From a virus (lineage: Duplodnaviria; Heunggongvirae; Uroviricota; Caudoviricetes), in IMG/VR virus record IMGVR_UViG_3300029705_000018: a stretch of 64,000 bases of DNA, one strand, 5' to 3'. Every line of letters starts with the position of its first letter. The stretch's first letter is position 1. The notes under the pieces are model-generated. The model made no database searches and was not told the origin of the DNA. It saw only the letters and a list, made by a program, of their open reading frames with translations. This document shows positions 8,970-37,416 of this stretch, one piece after another. The translations under genes and the position numbers were made by a program.

Positions 8970-10958
8970 TTACACGATTCCAAATGTCTCAATGAAGTCG
9001 GTTTCTGACAAGATCGCAACCCCCAAAGACTTCGCAGCTTGATTCTTTGAAGAGGTCGAGTTCACATCATTATTGATAAGATAATTAGTATTCTTGCTAA
9101 CAGAACCTGTTACCTTACCACCAAGAGCCTCAATTTTAGCTTTCAAAGCATCCCGATTCTTGAAATGAGTGAGCTTTCCAGTAATTACAAAGGTTTTTCC
9201 TGTTAAATCAACAGCACCTTCCGCAGTCTCCTCAACCTTTGCTTCTGGAGAATTAAATTGAATAAAATGGTCAGCAATATATTTTGCTTCGGAGTAATCA
9301 AAATCGATTAGATTACGATGCATCTCGCCTCCAAAACCGGAAAGCTGATAGAATGGATACTTACTATCCACAGCCACTACAAAATCTTCCCAAGTCTTGA
9401 AATGCTTGACCAATTCCTTAGAAGCCGTTGAACCAATCAACGGAATACCAAGAGCCGCAATGAACTGATGAAGTTCACAGTGAGAACCAGTACTAATGGC
9501 ATTAAATACCTTCTCGACGGATTTGACACCAAATCCAGGTTTTTTAATCCATTCTTCTTTATGAGTAGCCAAATCAAAAATGTCGGAGCATTTACTTACC
9601 CAACCCCAATCAATCAATTTCTCTAGAGTGGCTTTAGAAATACCCTTCATATCAAGGCCCTTCTTACCACAGAAATGATCTAATCGGTTAATCAACTTAC
9701 CAGGACATCCGGAATCAATACAAATCAACACAACGGAATCATTCACGCCCCAATGCTGAGTCATTCCGCCGCAAACAGGACACTCATGAGGAATAAGAAT
9801 CTTATTCTCTTCATATAAGCCTTCCTTACTAGCAGAAGCAATCTGCGGAATAATCATATTAGCCTTGAATACTTCAATCTCTTGATACTTATGCGGACCA
9901 AGAGGGGCAAAAATTCCTGCCATAACACTGATATTGTGTAAACTTGCTCTTTCTACGGTAGAACCATCAATATCGACTGGTTCAAAGATTGCGACGGGAG
10001 TCAAAACGCCTGTTCTACCCATCGTCCATTCGATATCCAAAAGCCTGGTAGTGTAGGTATCATCATAGAACTTAAATGCCAACGCATTTTTGAAGTGATG
10101 TGTCGTTTCGCCAAGAGAACGTCCGTATGCACAGTCCGCAAATTTGAATACTACGCCATCAATGGGATAAGAATGAATTTTTGCAGTATTTCTAATCGCA
10201 TCAATTACGTGTTCAATGTTCACTTGATTAACTGCTTGACCTGTTAGTGGAACAAATGGGACAATTGTAAATCCAAAAGGACGAAGTAATTCAAGCTTTT
10301 GGTCTAACCGATATTCCACTCCATCTTCAAAGTAGATGGAAGAAATAACATCCCATACCACAAATGTGAGCCTGCGGGCCGCACATTCCTTGGCATCTAA
10401 TAGACGAATACTACCTGCAGCGAAATTTCTTGGGTTCCGATACTGATTACTGAACTCTTGGAAATCATCATATGTGCAAATAATTTCACCATCAATTACC
10501 AGTTCATCAGTATATGGGATTTTACGCGGAATAGAAGAAAGAACTCTTGCGTTATGTAAAATATCTTCACCAACTAATCCGTTGCCCCGAGTCTCCGCAG
10601 CAACTAATTCTCCATTACGGTAAGTAAGAGAACAAGTAAGACCATCCATCTTACACATTGCCAGGAATAATTTATTTCCGACAAAATCTAATACTTCCTT
10701 TGAAGATTTAGTTTTTTCTAAGGATAACATCTTATGATTATGTTCTGCTTTTGATAAAGCATTTACTACTTCATAAGTAATAACTTGAGTAGGAGAATTA
10801 GGAAGGACTAATCCAGTTTCTTCTTCTAATTGTTTCAACTCAAAATATTTATTATCCCATTCTTCGTCTGTAATTATTGGATTTCCTTCATCATATTTTT
10901 TAGTAGCATCATTTAAGATAGCTACTAAATAATGAATTTTATCATAGATACTATCCAT
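8970..10958 (-). CDS. ligA: NAD+-dependent DNA ligase
   Basis: 662 aa. It has the adenylation motif KMDGL, an OB fold, a Zn-finger (CPVCGG), HhH repeats and a BRCT-like C-terminus. Confidence 0.9.
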   Translation of the reverse strand: MDSIYDKIHYLVAILNDATKKYDEGNPIITDEEWDNKYFELKQLEEETGLVLPNSPTQVITYEVVNALSKAEHNHKMLSLEKTKSSKEVLDFVGNKLFLAMCKMDGLTCSLTYRNGELVAAETRGNGLVGEDILHNARVLSSIPRKIPYTDELVIDGEIICTYDDFQEFSNQYRNPRNFAAGSIRLLDAKECAARRLTFVVWDVISSIYFEDGVEYRLDQKLELLRPFGFTIVPFVPLTGQAVNQVNIEHVIDAIRNTAKIHSYPIDGVVFKFADCAYGRSLGETTHHFKNALAFKFYDDTYTTRLLDIEWTMGRTGVLTPVAIFEPVDIDGSTVERASLHNISVMAGIFAPLGPHKYQEIEVFKANMIIPQIASASKEGLYEENKILIPHECPVCGGMTQHWGVNDSVVLICIDSGCPGKLINRLDHFCGKKGLDMKGISKATLEKLIDWGWVSKCSDIFDLATHKEEWIKKPGFGVKSVEKVFNAISTGSHCELHQFIAALGIPLIGSTASKELVKHFKTWEDFVVAVDSKYPFYQLSGFGGEMHRNLIDFDYSEAKYIADHFIQFNSPEAKVEETAEGAVDLTGKTFVITGKLTHFKNRDALKAKIEALGGKVTGSVSKNTNYLINNDVNSTSSKNQAAKSLGVAILSETDFIETFGIV

Positions 10959-24857: not shown

Positions 24858-25586
24858 TTAACTGAAAAATGAATAACTTTGGTAGGTGTTCAAATCCAAA
24901 AGACAGAACTCACCCATAAAGAATCCACCAGTGTCAATGCACACTTTATGGCCGTCCGCATACCAGATGGGACCGGACTCCCAATCGATATACAAATCTT
25001 CACTGATATAACATACAGGAGTATGACCATGAACAACAAGGAAGTCATCATAACCACCCTCGTTCAGTGGGTCCCAGGGATCGAAATAGTCATCTCTGTT
25101 CCAGATAAGATGCTCATCATCGGGAATGATAAGCTCTTTATCTTCGTCAGCTTCAGGATCACTCCAATAAGGAGTATAACCCGCATGACTCAGCAGAATT
25201 CTCATTCCAAGAGCATTAGTATACTCTACATGGGTAGGCAGGTCACGCAGATACTCATACCACTTCATGCGGTCAGGGTCCCGCTCCCAAGCTTCCATTG
25301 TAGGTCGTCCACCATTGTGAGAAGAAAGAGAATAAGAGTGATAATCCCACATGAAACCATCATCGAGATAATCTTTGATGGCCTTTACGAGCATATCTTC
25401 ATGGTTGCCCTTAATGTAAACAAATCGAGGGTCTGCCGCAACTGCCTTGATACATTCATAGGACTGCAGGCCGCGGTCGCACGCATCGCCCAGAAAATAG
25501 ACCTTATCATCGGGCTTTAAAAATGCTTGAATCTTACGAAACACTTCTAAATGCCCATGCAGGTCGCCCAGCGCATATGTAGCCAT
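24858..25586 (-). CDS. PPP-family Ser/Thr phosphatase-like metallophosphatase (lambda-phosphatase-like)
   Basis: 242 aa with GDLHG, GDACDRG and GNHE motifs. Confidence 0.7.
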   Translation of the reverse strand: MATYALGDLHGHLEVFRKIQAFLKPDDKVYFLGDACDRGLQSYECIKAVAADPRFVYIKGNHEDMLVKAIKDYLDDGFMWDYHSYSLSSHNGGRPTMEAWERDPDRMKWYEYLRDLPTHVEYTNALGMRILLSHAGYTPYWSDPEADEDKELIIPDDEHLIWNRDDYFDPWDPLNEGGYDDFLVVHGHTPVCYISEDLYIDWESGPIWYADGHKVCIDTGGFFMGEFCLLDLNTYQSYSFFS

Positions 25587-25856: not shown

Positions 25857-26801
25857 TTAGGGCATCTGAATGACGGGGGTATTATCGCCACCATAGATGG
25901 TAGGCAACTTACCGTCCCACTTTTCGTAGTACATCTTTTCGAGCAGATTACCAGTCAGAGATTCAGCCAGTAATCTGTTAGCTTCAGCCTGGGCCTCAGC
26001 CAACATAATCATAGCCTCAGCTTCGGCTTCAGCCTTAGCGATATTAGCTTCATTCTTATTCTGCTGAATTACCAGTTCCTGCTCGGACGCAAACTTGGCA
26101 TCGATTGCCCTCTGGATTTCGGGGTTCTCATAGGAAATGTCTTCCTTGATACCCAGGACAGTAATGGTAATGCCGTATTCCTTGAAGTAAGGAATTACAT
26201 ATTCCTTGACAGCTTCCATAATCTTGCCCTTGTTGGCGCCCAGCTCAGTAGAAGTGTACTTAGAAGTTTCAATGTTGAAACGGTCTTCAACCAGCTTCTT
26301 AATGTCGTTGTCAATAATCTGCTCCAGAGGAGTGTTATTGTAGCGATACAGGAACTTTACGGCATCAGCTTCCTCGATCATGGTAGTACAGTTCATACCG
26401 ACATAGATGCCGATGTTATCAGAACTACCGCCAAAGATGGCGCGGTTAGAAGAAGAAGCAGTGTCGTCGCCGGAATCCCAAGAGCGAGATACAGGCTTAC
26501 GCTCAACGACAATCAGTTCTGCGGAAGGCTTCCATTCACCAGTCCAGCTCATGCGGCCCGTCTGGACCCAGCGGTGAGGAATCTGGACTTCTTTAGTGGC
26601 AACCTTGTGCTCAGCCAGCAGCTCTTCAGAAGCAAAGGCGGACTGAGAACTGGAATCACCAACCAGAGGGATCAGGAAACCGGTCTGCGAGGGAGAAATC
26701 TTGGCGAACTCAGGCTTGTCATAGGGCTTTCGACAACCAGCCAGGCTCAAACACAGGACCAGCATCAGGACGAGCAGAACCAACTTCTTTACCTTATTCA
26801 T
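25857..26801 (-). CDS. SPFH/band-7 (prohibitin/HflC-like) lipoprotein
   Basis: 314 aa. It has a signal peptide with lipobox LSLAGC, an SPFH core and a C-terminal AEAEAEA coiled-coil. Confidence 0.65.
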   Translation of the reverse strand: MNKVKKLVLLVLMLVLCLSLAGCRKPYDKPEFAKISPSQTGFLIPLVGDSSSQSAFASEELLAEHKVATKEVQIPHRWVQTGRMSWTGEWKPSAELIVVERKPVSRSWDSGDDTASSSNRAIFGGSSDNIGIYVGMNCTTMIEEADAVKFLYRYNNTPLEQIIDNDIKKLVEDRFNIETSKYTSTELGANKGKIMEAVKEYVIPYFKEYGITITVLGIKEDISYENPEIQRAIDAKFASEQELVIQQNKNEANIAKAEAEAEAMIMLAEAQAEANRLLAESLTGNLLEKMYYEKWDGKLPTIYGGDNTPVIQMP

Positions 26802-27388: not shown

Positions 27389-28105
27389 TCATTTGGCCTC
27401 CTGGATATACTGCCGAATTTCTTCTCGGTAGTTATAGACAAAAGACGGAACTAACTGTTTTACAGCATAGTCGCCACCCTCCATCTGGAATGCCTGCCGC
27501 ACCAGAGTAGCGCTGATACCCTCATATCGGTCCAGGAATTTGAAGCGAAGTAACCATCTTTCATCCTGTGCGAACCAACCGAGCATGATGCGGGGATCGT
27601 CACTGTAGTAGATGGTCATATCAGAATCCTTGGTCTTGCCGAACATCTTGATGTAAAGGTATCGGCCCCAACCGTGACTGTTGTCGCTTTCATCAGTCAT
27701 ATCATCCAAGGGATAGACATGAATGTGTTTCAGATCTTCGGTAGAAAATTGCTCGTGTAAAGCACCTTCCAGGAGCATCAGACGAAAATCAATGGGCAGA
27801 GGATTGCGCTTGGTGCCAGACTTGTCTGCGGAACCCACGAAAATGTGCAGGTCGCAATGATTTGCGGTGCAATCTTCATAAGCCTTCTTCACCATGTTCA
27901 TATGACCATTATGAAAAGGCTGTGCGCGGAACAGAATTACTCCAACCATATAATCCTCCTTACTTGATTTCCAGTTCTCTTGCTTGTTCGCTAGTGATAC
28001 CGAAGTACTCCTCAAACCCCTCAATGTCAGCGGGGTCGCAGGCACCTGAACAGATACATTTTCCGTCATGAAGCACCCAGTACCACATACCATCGGGATA
28101 CTCAA
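27389..28105 (-). CDS. Nicotinamide/nicotinate mononucleotide adenylyltransferase (NadM/NMNAT-like). The true start is probably the internal MVGVILF.
   Basis: The HxGH nucleotidyltransferase motif FRAQPFHNGHMNMV is present with a Rossmann-like core. Confidence 0.65.
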   Translation of the reverse strand: MSIPMVCGTGCFMTENVSVQVPATPLTLRGLRSTSVSLANKQENWKSSKEDYMVGVILFRAQPFHNGHMNMVKKAYEDCTANHCDLHIFVGSADKSGTKRNPLPIDFRLMLLEGALHEQFSTEDLKHIHVYPLDDMTDESDNSHGWGRYLYIKMFGKTKDSDMTIYYSDDPRIMLGWFAQDERWLLRFKFLDRYEGISATLVRQAFQMEGGDYAVKQLVPSFVYNYREEIRQYIQEAK

Positions 28106-28563
28106 CCAGGTGCTCCATAAGATTGAAAAAGTCTTTCAAATTGGAACAGCCATAGACCGCAACCAGACCTTTTCCGGTAAATTCTTCGGTAAAATAAACA
28201 TACGGATCAAGTACTATACGATCCCTAATTTTGTCAGTAAAAGCTACAATGATGGGGGCATCAATATTTACTGTCATTCTTATCAATCCCTCTCTTTAAT
28301 TGTGTATTTATCCCAACCATATTTGGGAATCATTTTCATAAGTGTTATTGAATCTTTTACGCTAAAAAGTTGACAATGCTCGCAAAAAGTCTTATAAAGA
28401 AAATCTTCTGTTAGAGATAAGACCATATCTTGAGCATCTTCCAGAGAGTCACAAAAACATACAATATCATAGCTGTATCGCTCATCACGATAGACTTTTA
28501 ATCTATTTTTCTCGTAAATAGCATACTTGCACATCTTTTCCCCTCTCTTTACTTTGTATATAT

Positions 28564-28592
28564 ATTATATCATATTTTTTTATAAAAATCAA
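28564..28592 (-). promoter_or_regulatory. Sigma-70 promoter with extended -10, fused to terminator hairpin 28596..28618
   Basis: The minus strand reads gagacccctcattttgaggggtctTTTTGATTTTTATAAAAAAATATGATATAAT. The terminator U-tract runs into the -35 element. Confidence 0.7.
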
Positions 28593-28621
28593 AAAGACCC
28601 CTCAAAATGAGGGGTCTCGTA

Positions 28622-29065
28622 TCACAGTTCGGAAATCAATTCTTTACGCTTTTCCATAAGAATTTCACCAAGCCAGTTTTTACCAGCAATTTCTGCACAT
28701 TTGGGACAGAAGCAGGAACCCCAAGTATTGTCATGCCAAGAGTTGCCTTCAATAAGAATGCAATCATTTGTAGCAATCAACTTACTTGCGAGTTTAGGGT
28801 GCGTATCAAATTTCCGCCCTACGCCAACGCGCATAGCAGTGTATTTGACCTGTTCCCAATCCTCACGCAACTGAACTTGACGGCCCATTCGCTTAGCCTT
28901 ACCCGGAGTTGCGGCGGCCGCAATCTTCTTTCTTTCCTCTTGGTCGAGGGTTTTCATTGCCTGAAAGAAGTGTTCGTTGGTAGGATATTCAATTCCATCA
29001 TAGGTAAAAGGGGCATAATAGAAGTTACTTAGAAAAGCGTATTTTCCATCAAATTCAGTAATCAT
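28622..29065 (-). CDS. NADAR (YbiA-like) domain protein, a putative ADP-ribose N-glycosidase
   Basis: 147 aa. FLSNFYYAPFTYDGIEYPTNEHFFQAMK is the NADAR signature. Confidence 0.7.
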   Translation of the reverse strand: MITEFDGKYAFLSNFYYAPFTYDGIEYPTNEHFFQAMKTLDQEERKKIAAAATPGKAKRMGRQVQLREDWEQVKYTAMRVGVGRKFDTHPKLASKLIATNDCILIEGNSWHDNTWGSCFCPKCAEIAGKNWLGEILMEKRKELISEL

Positions 29066-29074
29066 ACTTCCTCC

Positions 29075-29908
29075 TTAGAAATCAATAAACGGGGTATCTT
29101 CATGGAGGACTTCAAAGCAACCTCCATGTCGATTGGAACTACCTTCCCATTTTCTGGTGCGGGCACGAATATAGGGAATATTCAGCATACGCATTTTATG
29201 AGCATTTCGCTCATGACGCTCTTCAATTAGTCGCAGAGTTTCATAAGAAGGCGTCTTATTGTCCAGAAGATAAGCATCGAGGACTTCATAAGTGAAGCCG
29301 AAATTATCTTCATCGGTTTTACCGGTCATGCCATCGCCAGGAGCCTTATGAACCAGCTCAGCAGGCAGATTCAGAGCATCACCGATAGCCAAAATTTCAC
29401 GAACATAAAAGTCGTAAAAAATGGAGAAATCACCGGCCATATCGCCAAACTTAGTAGTATAGCCGACATACATTTCAGATGCATTGCCAGTATGAACCAC
29501 TCGACCGCCGATCAATGCGGCGATGCCATACAGAGTAGTCATGCGCAGGCGAGCAGGAGTATTAGTGTAGAATACATCATTGCCACCACCGAAATACTCT
29601 TCGGGGATTGCTTCCACCAAAGCATCCATGGTGGAGCCAATATTGACGACAGTATAGGGCATATGCAGATGCTCTACGACTTTGTAAGAATCTGCGATGT
29701 CAGCCTGTTCGCCACAGGGCATCAGAACACCGAAGACATTCTCAGAACCCAAAGCGCGACACAACAGGGCAGCCGCAATTGTAGAATCCTTGCCACCGGA
29801 GATGCCGATAACAGCTTTGGTGGTTTTACCACCATTCTTCACGAAATACTTTTTGATTTCGGTAATCATATACTGGATTTCCAGTTCAGCGTCAAATGCT
29901 CTACCCAT
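29075..29908 (-). CDS. nadE: NH3-dependent NAD+ synthetase
   Basis: 277 aa with the PP-loop GISGGKDSTIAAAL. Confidence 0.85.
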   Translation of the reverse strand: MGRAFDAELEIQYMITEIKKYFVKNGGKTTKAVIGISGGKDSTIAAALLCRALGSENVFGVLMPCGEQADIADSYKVVEHLHMPYTVVNIGSTMDALVEAIPEEYFGGGNDVFYTNTPARLRMTTLYGIAALIGGRVVHTGNASEMYVGYTTKFGDMAGDFSIFYDFYVREILAIGDALNLPAELVHKAPGDGMTGKTDEDNFGFTYEVLDAYLLDNKTPSYETLRLIEERHERNAHKMRMLNIPYIRARTRKWEGSSNRHGGCFEVLHEDTPFIDF

Positions 29909-29910
29909 TT

Positions 29911-30417
29911 TTACTCCTCCAAATAGTAGATATATACTTCATAGTCCTCATCAAGGACTTGCTCGATCATTGTCTTGATGACCTCCCAGTTGCCGCCACC
30001 CAGGCCGCAACCAATATGGGATGGGAAGCCAATTGTTGCGCCTTCTGGAACAAATTCTCGGATATGTCCGAGGCAGCTCCAGAAGCCATCATAAGAAGTG
30101 TATCTGCGGCCATCATAACCATAGTGCTCTTGGGCGAACATATTGATTACAGTATGAGTTTTATCCACCTGGACTAGTTGAATATCGCCTAAAAGCACTT
30201 CGCTGGTCTCGGGACAATGTTCAAAACCACCGCAGTTACGCAGAATATTATCCTCAGTATCATTATACTTCTGGATATATTCGCTGTAAACTACGGGCCA
30301 CTTATCTTTAATTGCCTTAGCGATGCCAGAGCCCATGCGACCCTGGCAATTCACCTGATGGCAGTAATAGTCAACATCTGCATCAAGCAGACTACCTTTT
30401 ACATGGTAAATACTCAT
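29911..30417 (-). CDS. Macro domain protein (binds or hydrolyses ADP-ribose or O-acetyl-ADP-ribose)
   Basis: 168 aa. VDYYCHQVNCQGRMGSGIAKAI and GCGLGGGNW are macro-domain motifs. Confidence 0.7.
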   Translation of the reverse strand: MSIYHVKGSLLDADVDYYCHQVNCQGRMGSGIAKAIKDKWPVVYSEYIQKYNDTEDNILRNCGGFEHCPETSEVLLGDIQLVQVDKTHTVINMFAQEHYGYDGRRYTSYDGFWSCLGHIREFVPEGATIGFPSHIGCGLGGGNWEVIKTMIEQVLDEDYEVYIYYLEE

Positions 30418-32207
30418 TACTTACCCCACAGTCTTTCGCGGATTTCAGCCAGACTCTGTCTATTGGTCAATTTACCATTATAGAACACAGTCTGAAGCAG
30501 ATTCTTTTCGCCCAGAGTATCTTCAAATGCGTGCTCGTCGGTATAGGACTCACCATCCAGAGCAACAACACAGCAACCCTTCTGGCTCTTTTTCCAAGCC
30601 AGAGCTTTAGGCTTCTTGAAGATATTGATACCATTACCAACGCAGTCTTCGGCATAAGTAGCCTTTACAGCAATGCCAAAAGTATCACGAGTATAAGGAC
30701 CAGCATTGGTACCGTTCCACTTACCAGCGAACTGGAGAGTACCTTCATCGTCAGCACAAACCAGAGCCATCATGAACATAGAACCAGCGCCCATAACGAC
30801 ATTATTGGCAGCGTAGCCCTGGGCGGCCAGACGCTTGTAAATTTCATTGGCATAGTCAGGCAGAATGCTGTCGCCGTAGATTGCCTTTAGATGGGGGTCC
30901 AGAACCTTATAGCCCTTTTCATTCACAGTATGACCGACAATCTGGTCCAATGCCCAAACGGTGCCGAGCAGTTCCAGAGAAGGCTGAATTTCTTCCCACT
31001 CAAAAGCATAGTCTTCAACGTAGTAATACTTACGATCAGTCCATGCGCCACGCTCATTAGTCCAGTCAGGATAGACATTCAGAGCGTAGAACTTGTCATT
31101 GAAATGGAAATACAGGACAGTTTCTTCCTCAACACCGCAGTCACGGCAGAAATCATACATCCAGTCCTTAGTGAATTCCTTGTCGGAAAACAGCTTTTCA
31201 GCTTCTTCGTCATCATAAGGAGTCAGCCAGTCAATGGGCTTACCAGCCAGGATTTCGACAGGATTACCGGAATCGCCACGCACCAGAAGAGTACCATCAT
31301 GAGCCATAATTTCTCTTTTGCACTGAGGAAGCAGGTTCATAACCAGATTTTCGTAGTCATAAGAGTCGGAAACCATGGAGAAACTGTGGTGTAGATAAAT
31401 TTCACTCAGCAGGCGCTTGATGTGAGTAATTTCATCACCATCAACGGCGAAGTTAGAACACATGACAGAGTGTTCGGTGGAGATAGCACCGAAGCCGACA
31501 GGCTCATTTTCGATGTTGCAATCATAATGCTTTTCCATCCACATGATTGCGGGAACAGTTGCAGTATTATGGTGGCTCAACAGCCATGCGCCAGAAGCCT
31601 TGATAGCAGATTCAGCGGAGTGCTGACCACGCATAGAGAAATCACCGATCATCTTCCAAGGACTTACAGAAGAGTCGCAGGTTTTTTCAACCCAAGTATT
31701 AACGACCTTGCGGTAACGATAACCGACTTCAGCCGCAATCTGCGTATGCCACATGGAGCAGGACAGCAGAGTTTCGATGGTATTTACCAGCCAGACGAAA
31801 TTGGGATGAGTATTGGAAATCTCAATCTGAGGTACACCAACTTTAGTGCGAGACCCCTCGGGGACAGCACGAATTTCCAGGGGTAGATAACCCAACTCCC
31901 ACAGGTCACGAATCTTACGATCCTCATAAGAACCGGGTCCCATGGTATAGGTCAAAACACGGTTATACTCATACAGAACTTCATCCAGATCACGGTCAAA
32001 GAACCAAGTTCTGAAACCATTGATCAGATATTCGTCAATGAAAGCCTGCAGACCAAAGAAAGTGATATGGTCTACATCATCCAGGCGACTTATTCTGGGA
32101 GTGTAATAGGAAACCATCTTGGTCAGACCCTTGGGATACTGCTCATGGTGAGTAGCTTTATAGAAGTCAATCAGCAGAAGAGGATTGTAATTATCCATAG
32201 TTATCAA
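30417..32207 (-). CDS. Nicotinamide phosphoribosyltransferase family enzyme (Nampt/NadV-like, or the NARP1 Namat-like enzyme) with an insertion of about 100 aa
   Basis: 596 aa. It shares LLIDFYKATHHEQYP, EIRAVPEG, VSDSYD, RGDSGNP and a C-terminal GKLTNRQSLAEIRERL with Nampt. Confidence 0.8.
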   Translation of the reverse strand: MITMDNYNPLLLIDFYKATHHEQYPKGLTKMVSYYTPRISRLDDVDHITFFGLQAFIDEYLINGFRTWFFDRDLDEVLYEYNRVLTYTMGPGSYEDRKIRDLWELGYLPLEIRAVPEGSRTKVGVPQIEISNTHPNFVWLVNTIETLLSCSMWHTQIAAEVGYRYRKVVNTWVEKTCDSSVSPWKMIGDFSMRGQHSAESAIKASGAWLLSHHNTATVPAIMWMEKHYDCNIENEPVGFGAISTEHSVMCSNFAVDGDEITHIKRLLSEIYLHHSFSMVSDSYDYENLVMNLLPQCKREIMAHDGTLLVRGDSGNPVEILAGKPIDWLTPYDDEEAEKLFSDKEFTKDWMYDFCRDCGVEEETVLYFHFNDKFYALNVYPDWTNERGAWTDRKYYYVEDYAFEWEEIQPSLELLGTVWALDQIVGHTVNEKGYKVLDPHLKAIYGDSILPDYANEIYKRLAAQGYAANNVVMGAGSMFMMALVCADDEGTLQFAGKWNGTNAGPYTRDTFGIAVKATYAEDCVGNGINIFKKPKALAWKKSQKGCCVVALDGESYTDEHAFEDTLGEKNLLQTVFYNGKLTNRQSLAEIRERLWGK

Positions 32208-32708
32208 ATTCCTTTCTCAAATCCGCAAACGGAAATTTCAATGTCATTGGGAAATACATCAGCCTGATGTGCTACATAATCGGTAACCGCTTCCATATAA
32301 TTTTCAACTGCGGTTTCAAATTCCTCTTTACCGCAGTCATCTTCGAGACCGACTAATTCAGGCTCTATTGTGAAGAGGTATGTGACGGACACATAAGCAA
32401 CTTTTTCCATTACTTATACCCTCTCTTCTTTCTTAGCTTACGCAGACCTTTGCTTTCCCACTTATTCGGGACGTGTTCTCTGGTCGCCAGCTCAGCCTTG
32501 AGCTGGGCACGGTAGCAGTTCAACTGATCCCAATCTTCGTTCCCCCAACAATGCTGACAACCCCAGGTGTAGGTGCTTCTCAGTTCAGCCAGTAGCTGAC
32601 GAGTATGCATTTTAGTCATTTCTTCGGGAGTGTGGATATTGATATCTTTGAAACCTGTATAACAGTAAAAACTCATTTTTTTTTCACTTCCTTACTTTTT
32701 GTATATAT

Positions 32709-32737
32709 ATTATATCATATTTTTTATAAAAAATCAA
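32709..32737 (-). promoter_or_regulatory. Sigma-70 promoter fused to terminator hairpin 32742..32766
   Basis: TTGATT-N17-TGATATAAT on the minus strand. The hairpin is agtccctctg aacg cagagggact. Confidence 0.65.
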
Positions 32738-32771
32738 AAAAGTCCCTCTGAACGCAGAGGGACTCTCAATA

Positions 32772-33056
32772 TTACTTGATAAATGTTTCGCAGAACGTCT
32801 CATATAAGGATTTTGCGAAAATCCAACAAACTTTGAATACGAACCAAATCATCCAGCCTATCCAGCCAATGACTACAATTCCGGCGATAACTACGCCGAC
32901 AGAAGCAGGAATGACAAGGAATAGAGCTTCGAGAAAAGAGGCTACAAGCCAGATTGCTGCTCCGACTAGGGCAAAGCCAAAAATGGTACAAACCATTGCC
33001 AGACAGGCAAGTAAAAATTTAATCATTGGGAATTTCAATCCTTTCAAAGACCTCAC
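32772..33056 (-). CDS. Small polytopic membrane protein
   Basis: 94 aa and strongly hydrophobic. Confidence 0.3.
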   Translation of the reverse strand: MRSLKGLKFPMIKFLLACLAMVCTIFGFALVGAAIWLVASFLEALFLVIPASVGVVIAGIVVIGWIGWMIWFVFKVCWIFAKSLYETFCETFIK

Positions 33057-33810
33057 AAATATCTTCGGTAAAACGCAATTTTACGGGGAAATAACCTTTG
33101 CGCTCGACCTCATCACGATTGATTATTACGATATTATCAGAGTGGAACCAATCAGGTAAGAAATTTGCGGGAGCGACTGCCAAAGAAGTGCCAACGATAA
33201 TCATAAGGTCAGCTGCAGATACATGAGCCATTGCCATTTGCCACTGAAGACCCGGTAAACTTTCGCCATATAGGGTGATATCGGGGCGGATAGTGAACTC
33301 GCCGCCGCATAGAGGGCACCTCGGCACACCATTTTTATCATCATAGTTGCCATCCATTACATCTTCTGGAATGAATGTCTCACATAAGCAGCCAGGGCAG
33401 TACCAGTCAGCCATGGTGCCATGAATTGTGTCAACTACTTTTGAACCGGCTTTTTCATGGAGTCCGTCAATATTCTGAGTAACCACAGACACAGTTCTTG
33501 CTTGCTGCAGCTCAGAGATTTTTTTATGAGCGATGTTCGGTTCAGCATTGCGAAAATCCATATTATTTCGTAAATACTGGAAGAACCGCTCAGGTTCCAT
33601 TTTGAGGCAGGTGTGGCTCAACATATATTCTGGCTCATCTTCTTCACTGGTATTGTATAAGCCATTATTGCTGCGGAAGTCCGGAATGCCGGAGCCGGTA
33701 GAGATACCAGCTCCGGTCAAAAATACGATACGCTTGGCTCCCGCAATCATTTCATTCAATTGTTTTATGCGTTCGTCAAAGCTTTCCATTTTAGTTATCT
33801 CCTGTTCCAT
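33019..33810 (-). CDS. Sir2-family NAD-dependent deacylase or ADP-ribosyltransferase
   Basis: 263 aa with GAGISTGSGIPDFR, a Zn module CPGC...CPLCGG and the motif VTQNIDGLH. Confidence 0.8.
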   Translation of the reverse strand: MEQEITKMESFDERIKQLNEMIAGAKRIVFLTGAGISTGSGIPDFRSNNGLYNTSEEDEPEYMLSHTCLKMEPERFFQYLRNNMDFRNAEPNIAHKKISELQQARTVSVVTQNIDGLHEKAGSKVVDTIHGTMADWYCPGCLCETFIPEDVMDGNYDDKNGVPRCPLCGGEFTIRPDITLYGESLPGLQWQMAMAHVSAADLMIIVGTSLAVAPANFLPDWFHSDNIVIINRDEVERKGYFPVKLRFTEDICEVFERIEIPND

Positions 33811-34339
33811 TCAGCTGGGCTTCCAGAACGACGTCGCCCTGAGCCATAGCCTTATCCACAGCCATCTTAGCAGACTTCATATCACAACCCTGCTTTTTCA
33901 AGAAAGGCATTACATTCTTTACGATAACGCCCTTATTGCCAGAAGTGATAGAAACAGCATTGCAGATACCCCAGTAATTGACCATCTTGACGATTTCATC
34001 AACATCGTCAATGACCTTGGGAGCATATTCCTCCACAATAGCCAACTTTTCGCGGTATTCAGCCTTGCGGGCCGCATACTTCTCACCGTCGGGGCAGGTA
34101 TCGATCATTTCTTTTACAGTCTTGACATACTTTGTCAATACTTCATCAACCAGTGTATCAGTGATTGCAACACGGGTTTTGTCGGCAGTAGCAGCCTTGT
34201 CAATGGAAGCTACCATATCGGCGATAGTTAGACGACGAAGTTTATTACCCTCTTTTAAAGCTGTCGTCATATCAGCTTTGAGGGTTTCATACTTATCCAT
34301 TGGAGTATGCTCCTTTCTTAGTGAAATATAGTAATCCAA
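33791..34339 (-). CDS. GatB/YqeY-domain protein
   Basis: 182-aa helical protein with a YqeY-like pattern. Confidence 0.4.
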   Translation of the reverse strand: MDYYISLRKEHTPMDKYETLKADMTTALKEGNKLRRLTIADMVASIDKAATADKTRVAITDTLVDEVLTKYVKTVKEMIDTCPDGEKYAARKAEYREKLAIVEEYAPKVIDDVDEIVKMVNYWGICNAVSITSGNKGVIVKNVMPFLKKQGCDMKSAKMAVDKAMAQGDVVLEAQLNGTGDN

Positions 34340-35148
34340 CCGCCCCAGCCAGCACCGTCATAGGGACCATCAATCAGCATCTGGGGGAAAATGGATTCAG
34401 TGGTATAGATATGCTTGATCAGACCGGACTCGGGCAGATCGCCAAGAGTAACAGTTTCTTCCAGGTGGGTCACATACAGACTTACGCTCTTGGCACCTGC
34501 TTCCAGCAAAGCCTTTGCGGAGTGGTAGAAAGTGCCACCTCTGGAGCAAATATCATCAACAATCAGAACATCTTTGTCTTTGATGTTCTCGGCATTGATA
34601 ATATCTAGACCTAAAATCTTGCCAGTAGCCCAGTCTCGCTTTTTCATACCAAAAGCATAAGGTAGAGGGGACTTATCAGAGTAGCGCTTCATTGCGCCCT
34701 CATCGGGGAAGAACAGAACTTCAGCCTTGGAAGCCAGAGTAGCCTTATGAATATAAGGCTCAACACCAGTATCCTCTACTCGATCAAGCAGAGCCAGGCT
34801 CACGTTGCTATGGGCGTCCCGCACCCAAACAATCTTGAAGTTCAGAGAGTTAATAATCTCGCAGAAATACTTCAGAGTAAAGACGTCAGAATCAGACTTT
34901 ACTCGATCCATGCGAGCGTGGGGAATGTAGGGCATATCCAGAACAACATCGGTGTTGCCAAAGTGGCGGTCGATATGACGCTTCACGCAGATTAGAGTGA
35001 AGAGTTCGCTATCGTCTTCATAAAGCCATTCCACCTTGATGGCGCCTCTGTTATCAAACATCTCTTCTGGATTGAGCTTGATAAGCAAAGAGTGATCGGG
35101 GAACATGGACTGACCGCTACGAATAGAAATATTACCTACTCTAATCAT
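34318..35148 (-). CDS. Ribose-phosphate pyrophosphokinase-like enzyme: either a PRPP synthetase or an ADPR-pyrophosphate synthetase of the Adps type
   Basis: 276 aa with the PRTase P-loop VLIVDDICSRGGTF. The Prs fold is present but the N-terminus is divergent. Confidence 0.7.
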   Translation of the reverse strand: MIRVGNISIRSGQSMFPDHSLLIKLNPEEMFDNRGAIKVEWLYEDDSELFTLICVKRHIDRHFGNTDVVLDMPYIPHARMDRVKSDSDVFTLKYFCEIINSLNFKIVWVRDAHSNVSLALLDRVEDTGVEPYIHKATLASKAEVLFFPDEGAMKRYSDKSPLPYAFGMKKRDWATGKILGLDIINAENIKDKDVLIVDDICSRGGTFYHSAKALLEAGAKSVSLYVTHLEETVTLGDLPESGLIKHIYTTESIFPQMLIDGPYDGAGWGGWITIFH

Positions 35149-35160
35149 TGGCTATCCTCC

Positions 35161-35769
35161 TTAGATAATGTTGATCTGGCACAGCTTCATTGCTTCCAGG
35201 GCGGTCTTGTGGGACTCAGGAGTCACGCAAGCGCAGCAGTCAGCAACGACATTGACAGGAACTTCGGGCAGAGTTGCCTTACACAGAATTGCATTGGACA
35301 GGACGCAGATGCCAGTGCATACGCCCATCAGAGTGATTTCCTCGATTTCAAAGCGGTCATTCATATCATACAGAATATTCTGCAGTTCAACAGAGCCAAA
35401 AGTAGGCTTCTTGACGCGGATGGGGTTCTCGTCATAAACGGGATATGCATCATAACCGGACATATAGCGATTTTCGCCCTGGGCATGATGAATCCAGGCT
35501 TCAAAGACTTCATCGACGATGCCATAGCCAGCGGTGCCTTCGATGCAATGAGGAACGGGCAGGTTCTTACCTTCCAGAGTATTCATATAGTCATCGGTAT
35601 GAGTATCCTTGGTGAAGATGATAGCGGTATTGGGATCAGCAAGTTGATGAATGGTTTCCGCAACCAGAGGAACGATAGCCTGGGCTTCGGGAGTACCCAG
35701 TGCGCCATCGATAAAGTCCCTCTGCATATCAACGACAATGACTACCTTAATCTTTTCCATATTTTTCAA
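35161..35769 (-). CDS. Isochorismatase-family cysteine hydrolase, a putative nicotinamidase (PncA-like)
   Basis: 202 aa. VVIVVDMQRDF, a later Lys and the motif GVCTGICV give a D-K-C triad arrangement. Confidence 0.65.
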   Translation of the reverse strand: MKNMEKIKVVIVVDMQRDFIDGALGTPEAQAIVPLVAETIHQLADPNTAIIFTKDTHTDDYMNTLEGKNLPVPHCIEGTAGYGIVDEVFEAWIHHAQGENRYMSGYDAYPVYDENPIRVKKPTFGSVELQNILYDMNDRFEIEEITLMGVCTGICVLSNAILCKATLPEVPVNVVADCCACVTPESHKTALEAMKLCQINII

Positions 35770-35794: not shown

Positions 35795-35823
35795 ATTATA
35801 ACATATTTTTTTTGAAAAATCAA
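35795..35823 (-). promoter_or_regulatory. Sigma-70 promoter fused to terminator hairpin 35827..35849
   Basis: TTGATT-N17-TATAAT on the minus strand. The hairpin is aggctctct tgttc agagagcct. Confidence 0.6.
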
Positions 35824-36759: not shown

Positions 36760-37416
36760 TTAAGAATGTTCATTCTTATCTTCCCTCTTATAGATATACG
36801 CCCATCGGGTGTATTCATCATAACACTGAACTTTGATAGCCTCATTGAGAGTGCTAATATTCGTGCGGAGAATAAATAAAATGTCCGCCAAGTCAGCATA
36901 TCTCTCCTTTGCCCGTTTCAATACGGGGAGCAACAGAACCTCTGTTTCTGCGACATTTTTACCCATGGCATCTTTGGTAAAGGATATGGGCATATCGCCT
37001 AGGTTGTTGTATCTGTCAAGAGCCTTACAAATCAAAGCTTCCCGGCAGTCAAGGAGTTCATTGAAATAACGGCATTTTGTTTCAATTTTATCTAAGTCAG
37101 TATCGAACTTAGTGATAGTCATATACTGAACCGCACGCTTAACAGTATCGTTTACCGGCAGATACTCGGGCCGCACACCGCAATCTTCTACGGTATCATG
37201 AAGTAGGATGGTAGCAATGATATTATCATCGCGCAAGCCAAGAGCCACGGCATAGCAGGCCATTGACAGGGGATGAACAATATAAGGCGTTCCATCTTTG
37301 CGAGTCTGCCCACTGTGATGTTCACGGGCGAACTGCAAAGCGGTGATGGACTGCTTCATATTTGCGCCGATTAGATAACCTCTGAGATAGGTATACATTT
37401 TTTCAACGTTAGCCAT
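36760..37416 (-). CDS. HD-domain phosphohydrolase, RelA/SpoT-type, a putative (p)ppGpp hydrolase
   Basis: 218 aa. YIVHPLSMACYAVALGL...LLHDTVEDCG is the SpoT/Mesh1-type HD motif. Confidence 0.55.
   Translation of the reverse strand: MANVEKMYTYLRGYLIGANMKQSITALQFAREHHSGQTRKDGTPYIVHPLSMACYAVALGLRDDNIIATILLHDTVEDCGVRPEYLPVNDTVKRAVQYMTITKFDTDLDKIETKCRYFNELLDCREALICKALDRYNNLGDMPISFTKDAMGKNVAETEVLLLPVLKRAKERYADLADILFILRTNISTLNEAIKVQCYDEYTRWAYIYKREDKNEHS

Follow-up and report, generated by a model that had tools for sequence, protein, structure and literature searches.

A NARP1-family NAD+ gene island in a metagenomic phage, with a four-gene core that may work via nicotinate

Introduction

Depleting nicotinamide adenine dinucleotide (NAD+) ranks among the most common bacterial strategies against phages. 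The main known phage answer to it is the NAD+ reconstitution pathway NARP1, described as a two-gene pathway that needs nicotinamide. An island of NAD+ and ADP-ribose (ADPR) genes in the Caudoviricetes record IMGVR_UViG_3300029705_000018 of IMG/VR raises the question of which pathway is encoded when the NARP1 genes are joined by a nicotinamidase (PncA) and an NAD+ synthetase (NadE). The island lies at positions 27,389–35,769 of a stretch of DNA of 64,000 nucleotides (64 kb), which at its full length is called the window here. An earlier note on this DNA had counted eight NAD+/ADPR genes within about 8 kb; open reading frames (ORFs) and profile searches place all eight domains in the island, all on the minus strand, and the gene identifications hold.

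NARP1 consists of the kinase Adps and the transferase Namat (Osterman et al., bioRxiv 10.1101/2024.02.11.579819; structure PMC12774641), and in NARP1-AP the two are combined with a macro-domain phosphatase, Adpp (bioRxiv 10.64898/2026.01.28.702374). The island carries both NARP1 genes, with a Namat whose nicotinamide pocket is altered; this form, in the window and in its relatives, is referred to as variant Namat. We lean, by a little more than an even chance, toward reading the island as a NARP1-family toolkit for NAD+ reconstitution and ADPR handling, with a four-gene core that would work via nicotinate and not as the two-gene pathway. If the cassette runs via nicotinate and nicotinate adenine dinucleotide (NaAD), it would add to the known enzymatic reactions and to the known routes of NAD+ salvage. 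It would also account for the recurrent nicotinamidase and NAD synthetase genes in gut phage genomes, and it would mean that one and the same cassette forms a housekeeping-type operon in bacteria and a counter-defence module in phages.

Results and discussion

Family placement of the kinase and the transferase

The Prs-family kinase scores 71 bits with the NCBIfam Prs model, under the cutoff of 113. Its identity to the Adps proteins of SPbetaL1 and Tsamsa is 36–37% (E 4e-39 and 6e-41), as compared to 28% over 165 residues for E. coli Prs (E 2e-9), and Prs structures in the PDB match no better than E 2e-17. Neighbour-joining with E. coli Prs as the root, a thin outgroup of one sequence, nests the protein and its relatives within the Adps clade; for verified members of this clade, the literature gives ADPR as the substrate. 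The phylogenetic check that the earlier note had proposed for this protein thus groups it with Adps, far from E. coli Prs.

The 596-residue transferase has SPbetaL1 Namat (9w5w/9w5x, E 1e-103) as its top solved structure by sequence, with weaker matches to H. ducreyi NadV (8e-76) and human NAMPT (1e-38). An AlphaFold2 model with a mean predicted local distance difference test score (pLDDT) of 80.8 was compared to known structures with Foldseek and matched Namat 9w5x best, at a target-normalised TM-score of 0.88–0.89. Identity is 41% to SPbetaL1 Namat and 27% to the Nampt of a NARP2-type locus (L112; NMN adenylyltransferase, NMNAT, nearby and no Adps), which stood in for KVP40 NadV. The gene lies 2.1 kb downstream of the kinase gene on the same strand. 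Judged by these sequence relationships, the two are a NARP1-family pair by descent. The earlier reading of the Prs-like and Nampt-like genes as Adps and Namat is borne out, with a kinase that nests in Adps and a transferase closest to the crystallised Namat.

Besides this Namat, the island has no Nampt-clade enzyme, and NARP2 as defined by Osterman et al. is therefore absent. The pairing of Nampt with NMNAT that had been taken for NARP2 falls, since the sole gene of the Nampt family resembles Namat and NMNAT turns up only sporadically, as an accessory. The same note had gone on to a possible dual toolkit, with NARP1 and NARP2 side by side and with macro and NADAR domains that would reverse ADP-ribosylation of DNA by DarT-type enzymes. 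Genes for Adps, a Nampt-family enzyme and an NMNAT-like protein are indeed all present, and the likeness to NARP2 (Nampt plus NMNAT, Vibrio phage KVP40) goes as far as the NMNAT-like gene. We nevertheless regard the dual toolkit as highly improbable. The one Nampt-family gene is closer to Namat than to the NARP2-type Nampt and is tied to Adps, NMNAT is absent from most related loci, and the pocket substitutions and the obligate linkage to PncA and NadE described below would be left unexplained. A separate NARP2 arm was ruled out because no Nampt-clade enzyme is present, and NARP3 (PnuC plus NadR) was ruled out as a different pathway.

The transferase carries an insertion at about residues 324–412 (about 88 residues; approximately positions 30,972–31,238), modelled with confidence (pLDDT >90) as a pair of helices plus an antiparallel sheet of three strands. 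Within the selectivity-clamp helix lies a further insertion, of about 23 residues (478–505). Insertions of varying length occur at the first site in Bacillus phage Tsamsa, in Vibrio phages K408 and Ceto and in many relatives, and the large insertion is absent from equally close relatives of the same pocket type (e.g., L016 and L019). The insertion that had been noted earlier, at residues 330–450 and about 100 residues long, is thus real, with a different span, and it is not peculiar to this protein. As the key novelty of the island it was ruled out, the site being a variable hotspot.

Active-site residues of variant Namat

Variant Namat was aligned to SPbetaL1 Namat, whose ligand contacts are published and whose numbering is used here. 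The window protein has Asp215→Ala (A216), Ser239→Gly (G240), Ala242→Ser (S243) and Pro307→Gly (G311), and it retains Asp13, Tyr15, Arg40, Phe189, Arg192, the catalytic His245, Arg306, Asp308 and the TRD motif. Of the seven residues that form the nicotinamide pocket of Namat (Phe189, Arg192, Asp215, Ala242, Arg306, Asp13' and Tyr15'), five are kept, and the changes are confined to Asp215 and Ala242. Positions 215, 239 and 242 fully separate this Ala/Ser type from Namats with Asp or Glu at position 215, and position 307 does so nearly fully. All four contact nicotinamide or its ribose or adjoin such contacts, position 307 being adjacent to Arg306 and Asp308.

In SPbetaL1 Namat, Asp215 hydrogen-bonds nicotinamide, and the NAD+ output of the D215A mutant is 8.1-fold lower. 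The equivalent residue of human NAMPT, Asp219, is the accepted determinant of specificity for nicotinamide versus nicotinate, and mutation D219S switches the substrate. A literature search on the structural basis of NAMPT nicotinate selectivity was unproductive. If the nicotinate route exists, a simple rule would sort the metagenomic genes annotated as nicotinamide phosphoribosyltransferase, i.e., Asp versus Ala at Namat position 215 and Ala versus Ser at position 242.

In the window, the adenine clamp motif GSxΦxΦxΦTRD is split (GSMFMMALVCADDEGTLQFAGKWNGTNAGPYTRD): GS and TRD are separated by 29 residues and not by 6, and position 3 has Met. Across the window clade it is broken by 9–29 extra residues, with relatives reading GSFS[FM]MCLE...PYTRD, and in phage Phass-1 the motif has its canonical length (GAYTYQYVTRD). 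In the selectivity-clamp loop, PRISRLDD aligns with PRTSRVED of SPbetaL1, and the stacking Arg40 is conserved. With its disrupted clamp motif and without the nicotinamide-binding Asp, the protein is not a canonical Namat. The placement and residue check proposed in the earlier note thus has a divided outcome: the protein is closest to Namat, and Asp215, Ala242 and the clamp motif are not conserved.

Linkage of the altered pocket to PncA and NadE

We collected 95 IMG/VR loci encoding Namat relatives at 32–73% identity, together with reference phages, typed each Namat by its residues, and scanned the loci with profile hidden Markov models. Among 92 distinct viral Namats, 48 have Ala215/Ser242 and 44 have Asp or Glu at position 215 together with Ala242. 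PncA and/or NadE were found in all 48 Ala/Ser loci; both genes are present in 43, and one in the remaining 5, three of which lie at contig edges (L035 and L036 do not). Counted singly, PncA occurs in 45 and NadE in 46 of the 48. Neither gene was found in the fetched regions of the 44 Asp/Glu-type loci, a group that includes SPbetaL1, Tsamsa, K408 and Ceto. With phylogeny ignored, Fisher p is about 1e-21 to 1e-27.

The linkage persists down to about 30% identity and through shuffling of gene order between subclades, e.g., Adps-Namat-macro-NadE-PncA in L050 and PncA-Namat-NadE...Adps in L066. Adps itself is present in 93 of 100 fetched loci that hold a Namat homologue, a macro gene accompanies 31 of the 48 Ala/Ser Namats, and 117–118 of the 120 closest database homologues are of the Ala/Ser type. 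PncA, Adps, the pocket-altered Namat and NadE form a conserved four-gene core. The earlier note had treated PncA and NadE as additions to the pathway; they are present, as obligate partners of Adps and the altered Namat and not as add-ons.

The complete genome of Phass-1 (136 kb) encodes PncA, Adps, variant Namat, NadE and NADAR, and profile models detected no NMNAT, PncB or macro gene in it. Phass-1 (OQ749652.1; L001, L116–L118), the phage with the four-gene cassette that branches deepest, is annotated with genetic code 15 (TAG recoding). Several suppressor tRNAs are encoded in it, and immediately upstream of PncA there is a large array of tRNA genes.

These patterns bear on the possibility that the island is a canonical NARP1-AP. 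Adps and Namat would then use ADPR and nicotinamide directly, as in SPbetaL1/Bas63, while PncA and NadE would boost the Preiss–Handler pathway of the host (host PncB and NadD) and the Ala/Ser pocket would be a lineage marker. The rest of the catalytic core is kept (Phe189, Arg192, His245, Arg306, Asp308 and TRD), SPbetaL1 D215A retains about one eighth of wild-type activity, and the Ala/Ser forms make up a single clade, so the linkage could be inherited. However, the linkage is perfect both ways over the 92 sequences, despite the shuffled orders. PncA would also destroy nicotinamide, the substrate that Namat needs, and NadE would be without a phage-made substrate in genomes such as Phass-1 that have neither PncB nor NMNAT. 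We consider a canonical NARP1-AP fairly unlikely.

Adps-Namat versus PncB and NadD in sister phages and Clostridia

A scan seeded with NMNAT identified sister phages that have the same flanks (RNA ligase, SPFH and metallophosphatase genes) and lack Adps and variant Namat. Alongside PncA, NMNAT and NadE they encode a genuine PncB, which amounts to a complete phage-borne Preiss–Handler set. Their PncB (L107:13012–14235 and L109:11178–12395; also in L108 and L110) matches Pfam NAPRTase at E 9e-68 as well as the NAPRTase N-terminal domain. Of this set, the window has PncA and NadE; a profile search found no PncB in its 64 kb, and the NMNAT-like gene is the sole possible source of NadD.

A scan of species-representative genomes gave 69 loci, mostly in metagenome-assembled genomes of Clostridia and some in isolates, and in nearly all of them PncA, Adps, variant Namat and NadE are contiguous and in that order. 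In Lachnotalea glycerini DSM 28816, an operon (L185:6647–12393) consists of PncA, Adps, variant Namat of the Ala/Ser type, NadE and NrtR. Its NadE is the long glutamine-dependent form (647 aa), and ordinary chromosomal genes surround the cassette on its 1-Mb contig, which shows that the cassette is not confined to phages.

NrtR is a published ADPR-responsive repressor of NAD genes, and C. acetobutylicum has the published operon nrtR-pncA-pncB-nadD-nadE. The parallel between the Lachnotalea and C. acetobutylicum operons, together with the sister phages, indicates that Adps and variant Namat stand where PncB and NadD/NMNAT, which lead from nicotinate to NaAD, stand elsewhere. The cassette shares with the C. 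acetobutylicum operon PncA as the first gene, NadE as the last, NrtR in the Lachnotalea case and, presumably, the nicotinate/NaAD route. It differs in that Adps and variant Namat replace PncB and NadD, and the ribosyl-adenylate part would come from ADPR instead of phosphoribosyl pyrophosphate (PRPP) and ATP. For a canonical NARP1-AP this slot cuts both ways. Full Preiss–Handler sets in related phages imply that PncA and NadE are useful to phages even without Namat, as that alternative supposes, but the alternation of Adps-Namat and PncB (with NMNAT/NadD) in one slot, in a bacterial operon and in sister phages, argues against it.

In these sister phages NMNAT is part of a fusion protein (L109:9107–10561, 484 aa) that also contains an N-terminal Nudix domain and a winged-helix DNA-binding domain of the NrtR type. 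By its domain content, this fusion joins a regulator-like module to an NAD+ biosynthetic enzyme.

Proposed route

The two remaining core enzymes resemble solved structures of the expected function. The PncA-like protein (199 aa from the probable start at 35,760) has the nicotinamidases of P. horikoshii and M. tuberculosis as top solved-structure matches, its motifs for catalysis and metal binding (Asp, DxH, HC, Cys) line up with those of solved nicotinamidases, and it is 38% identical to the Phass-1 protein annotated as nicotinamidase. NadE scores 154 bits with TIGR00552 (cutoff 63.65), and its solved-structure matches are short NadE enzymes.

In the proposed route, PncA would deamidate the nicotinamide released from cleaved NAD+ to nicotinate, and Adps would pyrophosphorylate ADPR with ATP to give ADPR pyrophosphate (ADPR-PP). 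Variant Namat would then join ADPR-PP and nicotinate to form NaAD, which NadE would amidate to NAD+. The substrates of variant Namat, and with them NaAD as an intermediate, are inferred in this way, as are a role in anti-defence and the functions of Sir2, YqeY and NMNAT. That ADPR and not ribose-5-phosphate is the input is suggested by the ancestry of Adps, Arg40, the frequent macro gene and the connection to NrtR. A nicotinate route might pay, plausibly because Clostridia hosts salvage via nicotinate and would quickly deamidate freed nicotinamide. We give an about even chance to the more specific proposal that variant Namat is a nicotinate ADP-ribosyltransferase, which would be an activity so far undescribed, and the cassette a fourth, deamidated NAD+ route, which would replace PncB/NadD under NrtR in gut Clostridia and act with Adpp in anti-defence in large phages.

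As compared to NARP1, the core has the same Adps-clade kinase and Namat-clade transferase, with Namat fold, dimer-type catalytic core, Arg40, TRD and a phage setting. It differs by having four genes with obligate PncA and NadE, the substitutions Asp215→Ala and Ala242→Ser, an interrupted clamp-helix motif, separate transcription units for Adps and variant Namat, and a predicted transferase product that is NaAD and not NAD+. A search of the available library for papers that connect Namat with nicotinate, NaAD, PncA or NadE found none. A four-gene core with a nicotinate route appears to be undescribed, and the macro and NADAR parts match systems published in 2025–2026.

The same genes could also serve a PRPP-based deamidated salvage, in effect a nicotinate version of NARP2. 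The Prs-like enzyme would make PRPP, variant Namat would convert nicotinate and PRPP to nicotinate mononucleotide (NaMN), and phage NMNAT or host NadD would form NaAD, or NadE would act as a Francisella-like NMN synthetase; NadE or NMNAT would finish NAD+. According to the literature, Namat retains PRPP activity in vitro and prs-nadV operons have long been interpreted as PRPP supply. In the window clade the helix of the adenine clamp is interrupted, the window and contigs L105 and L106 carry NMNAT, and the window NadE resembles short NadEs including that of F. tularensis (3FIU, E 1.6e-27). Against this, the Prs-like protein falls within the Adps clade and below the Prs cutoff, the stacking Arg40 of the selectivity-clamp loop is conserved, the Adpp-type macro gene found in 31 of 48 loci would yield ADPR, and most Ala/Ser loci as well as the complete Phass-1 genome have no detectable NMNAT. 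A PRPP-based salvage is thus, in our view, distinctly unlikely.

Several points weigh against the nicotinate route itself. The substrates of variant Namat are deduced from two to four substitutions plus gene linkage, and mutant D219A of human NAMPT was reported to be inactive, not switched. Because of the interrupted clamp motif, use of ADPR-PP is less certain than in a canonical Namat; in the window protein Phe392 is replaced by Met, and the inserted clamp segment has a pLDDT <50. In a neighbour-joining tree the Ala/Ser Namats are one clade with Phass-1 as the deepest branch, so the linkage may stem from a single ancestral event and subsequent inheritance, and the p-values overstate independence. 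Most loci were scanned over flanks of only 8–10 kb, and the patterns of the genome scan are biased to the Ser242 form. Furthermore, Adps and variant Namat lie 2.1 kb apart in separate transcription units, and the extra ATP cost and the loss of nicotinamide have no obvious benefit for a phage.

Macro and NADAR proteins

The start of the macro gene overlaps the stop codon of variant Namat by one base. Its product is 35% identical (E 4e-28) to the macro protein of Vibrio phage K408, and in both K408 and Ceto the related gene sits between Adps and Namat. Identity to the verified Adpp of Vibrio phage Gary, a sequence taken from the supplement of the preprint since Gary was absent from BLAST lists, is 28% (E 9e-12), and HQxNCxxRMGxGIA and IGCGLxGGxW motifs occur in both proteins. 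The DarG macro domain, TARG1 and Poa1p (E 3e-3) all match weakly.

In NARP1-AP, Adpp forms ADPR from ADPR-1''-phosphate, which the aRES defence produces (bioRxiv 10.64898/2026.01.28.702374). The dual toolkit mentioned above would assign the macro protein to DNA de-ADP-ribosylation, and the macro domain of DarG does give weak matches to it (E 1.7e-15 in NCBIfam and E 2e-6 for solved structure 5m31). Since the gene abuts variant Namat and matches both the Vibrio Adps-macro-Namat genes and verified Adpp, the protein is better explained as a candidate Adpp than as a DarG-like enzyme. It would return ADPR-1''-phosphate, and perhaps also the O-acyl-ADPR of the sirtuin, as ADPR. The island thus resembles NARP1-AP in having a macro gene directly beside Namat. 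It differs in gene order, which is Namat-macro and not Adps-macro-Namat, and in the combination with PncA and NadE; its phosphatase activity is a prediction.

The NADAR protein scores 109.8 bits with Pfam (cutoff 35.1) and 100.7 bits with TIGR02464 (cutoff 73.7), and matches phrog_1017 at E 2.5e-45. Stand-alone phage NADARs (AdfN) reverse guanine ADP-ribosylation by DarT1 and counter DarTG1 (PMC11825919), a published activity on which the dual toolkit also draws. Like AdfN, the window protein is a stand-alone phage NADAR with a weak match to the T4 gp30.3 family; unlike AdfN, it is embedded in an NAD+ salvage cluster, and its de-ADP-ribosylase activity is putative. It would strip ADP-ribose from DNA guanine and so act against DarT1. 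The anti-DarT role that had been suggested for both proteins therefore stands for NADAR, in agreement with AdfN, and not for the Adpp-like macro protein.

Accessory genes

Sir2, NMNAT and YqeY are outside the conserved core. The true start of the NMNAT-like gene is M53 of the listed ORF, and the gene call of a relative likewise gives 186 residues. NCBIfam NMNAT models match at E 1e-11, below their cutoffs, and the top solved structures are archaeal NMNATs with weak matches (E 2e-6); an HxGH motif (FHNGH) and an ISSTxxR-like motif (ISATLVR) are visible. NMNAT occurs alongside Namat only in the window lineage (the window and L114/L115) and in viral contigs L105 and L106. It would recycle NMN or NaMN, which could come from the phage NAD+-dependent ligase, from pyrophosphatase-type cleavage of NAD+ or from a PRPP side reaction of variant Namat. 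Some defences split NAD+ into AMP and NMN, and the phage ligase, as a predicted NAD+ consumer that releases NMN, is a possible substrate source.

The sirtuin scores 245.4 bits with NCBIfam NF001752 (cutoff 221) and has the GAGISxxSGIPDFR motif, the catalytic His and four zinc-binding Cys residues. It is found only in close relatives of the window, in L018/L041 and in L019/L105. It would spend NAD+ and give nicotinamide and O-acyl-ADPR, both of which the rest of the island could recycle. A YqeY/GatB-like gene recurs beside Adps-Namat in Tsamsa (gp191, L002:7941–8378), L012, L013, L018, L019 and L106. The RyR-domain glycosidase RyDEP, a published NARP1 accessory, was not found among the small ORFs of the island.

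Island layout and phage context

Transcription in the window is nearly all on the minus strand and covers replication and nucleotide-metabolism functions of the phage; a DnaB-like helicase, both topoisomerase II subunits, PhoH and RNA ligase are also encoded. No tRNA genes were found in the 64 kb. None of 50,697 phage records matched the island at the nucleotide level, and an exact-sequence look-up of the 596-residue protein found no record. The window lineage is known only from metagenomes. Near relatives of the protein, with identities up to 94%, occur only in metagenome assemblies with contigs up to 203 kb, which indicates a large uncultured phage as the source. The host genome of the island is probably that of a large phage of about 200 kb infecting gut Clostridia. 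A relative on a 203-kb contig, with 82% Namat identity, has an identical gene set and order, and the 190-kb IMG/VR contig L105 holds all eight island genes; the clustering is therefore not a matter of chance.

A conserved promoter cassette preceded by a hairpin terminator is found at 35,823, 32,737 and 28,592, which divides the island into three transcription units (Table 1). A terminator-like hairpin (32,738–32,767) lies directly 3' of the 94-residue ORF that ends unit A. The two small ORFs at the start of unit B are kept in the 82% relative, and a homologue of orf88 is present in L018.

Table 1. Positions of island features, and of one context gene, in the 64-kb window.
Feature	Position	Strand	Basis
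PncA-like nicotinamidase, first gene of unit A	35161..35769	-	Pfam Isochorismatase E 5e-23
Adps-like ADPR pyrophosphokinase (Prs family)	34318..35148	-	phrog_619 E 4e-70
YqeY-domain protein, 169 aa, accessory	33791..34300	-	Pfam YqeY E 1e-8
CobB-type sirtuin, predicted NAD+-consuming deacylase, lineage-specific accessory	33019..33810	-	Pfam SIR2 E 1.4e-47, 162 bits
Small membrane-like ORF, 94 aa (TM94), final gene of unit A	32772..33056	-	ORF list; no Pfam match
Unit A/B boundary, hairpin terminator and promoter cassette	32709..32767	-	13-bp stem, then TTGATT-17-TATAAT, extended -10 TG
Two small ORFs (88 and 68 aa), start of unit B	32204..32676	-	no Pfam match
Variant Namat, 596 aa, Namat-family transferase	30417..32207	-	phrog_448 E 1e-138
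Macro-domain protein, candidate Adpp (ADPR-1''-phosphate phosphatase)	29911..30417	-	phrog_335 'phosphatase' E 1e-37
NH3-dependent NAD+ synthetase NadE	29075..29908	-	Pfam NAD_synthase E 8e-48, 163 bits
NADAR-domain protein, AdfN-like candidate DNA de-ADP-ribosylase, last of unit B	28622..29065	-	Pfam NADAR PF08719 E 2e-31
Unit B/C boundary, hairpin terminator and conserved promoter cassette	28564..28618	-	
Two small ORFs of unit C before NMNAT	27960-28534	-	
NMNAT-like adenylyltransferase, 186 aa, archaeal/NadM type, unit C	27389..27949	-	Pfam CTP_transf_like E 1.5e-7
NAD+-dependent DNA ligase, full-length (context)	8970..10958	-	phrog_3869 E 3e-159
Unit A: PncA-Adps-YqeY-Sir2-TM94		-	terminator/promoter boundaries
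Unit B: orf88-orf68-variant Namat-macro-NadE-NADAR		-	terminator/promoter boundaries
Unit C: orf83-orf108-NMNAT-orf77		-	terminator/promoter boundaries

The minus strand of the window has 18 copies of the promoter core TTGATT-N17-TATAAT and the plus strand has none. Their start positions are 59337, 54886, 54103, 51490, 48324, 46349, 41966, 40440, 36557, 35823, 32737, 28592, 27143, 25815, 24846, 16861, 5685 and 3264. A longer cassette, TTTTTGATTTTTwwAAAAAAATATGwTATAATATATAT, is common to the five fully read copies (36557, 35823, 32737, 28592 and 27143), and a GC-rich hairpin lies directly 5' of the cassette in four of these five. From its sequence and recurrence, the cassette looks like the phage's own promoter.

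Just upstream of the island, a stand-alone HD_4/RelA-SpoT-type hydrolase domain protein is encoded at 36760–37416 (minus strand). It matches TIGR00691 at E 4e-15 over the N-terminal hydrolase region, is kept in the 82% relative, and could be a small alarmone hydrolase. On the other side, the window has calcineurin-like metallophosphatase and SPFH/Band-7 genes at 24858–25586 and 25857–26801 (minus strand). Of the first 15 related loci, 13 have the metallophosphatase downstream of NadE/NADAR, and SPFH/Band-7 was seen in three. A DUF5662 gene lies between NADAR and NMNAT in the 82% relative (L114:13588–14049) and between NMNAT and macro in a sister phage (L107:10812–11330); the window has a 108-residue ORF roughly where the 82% relative has DUF5662.

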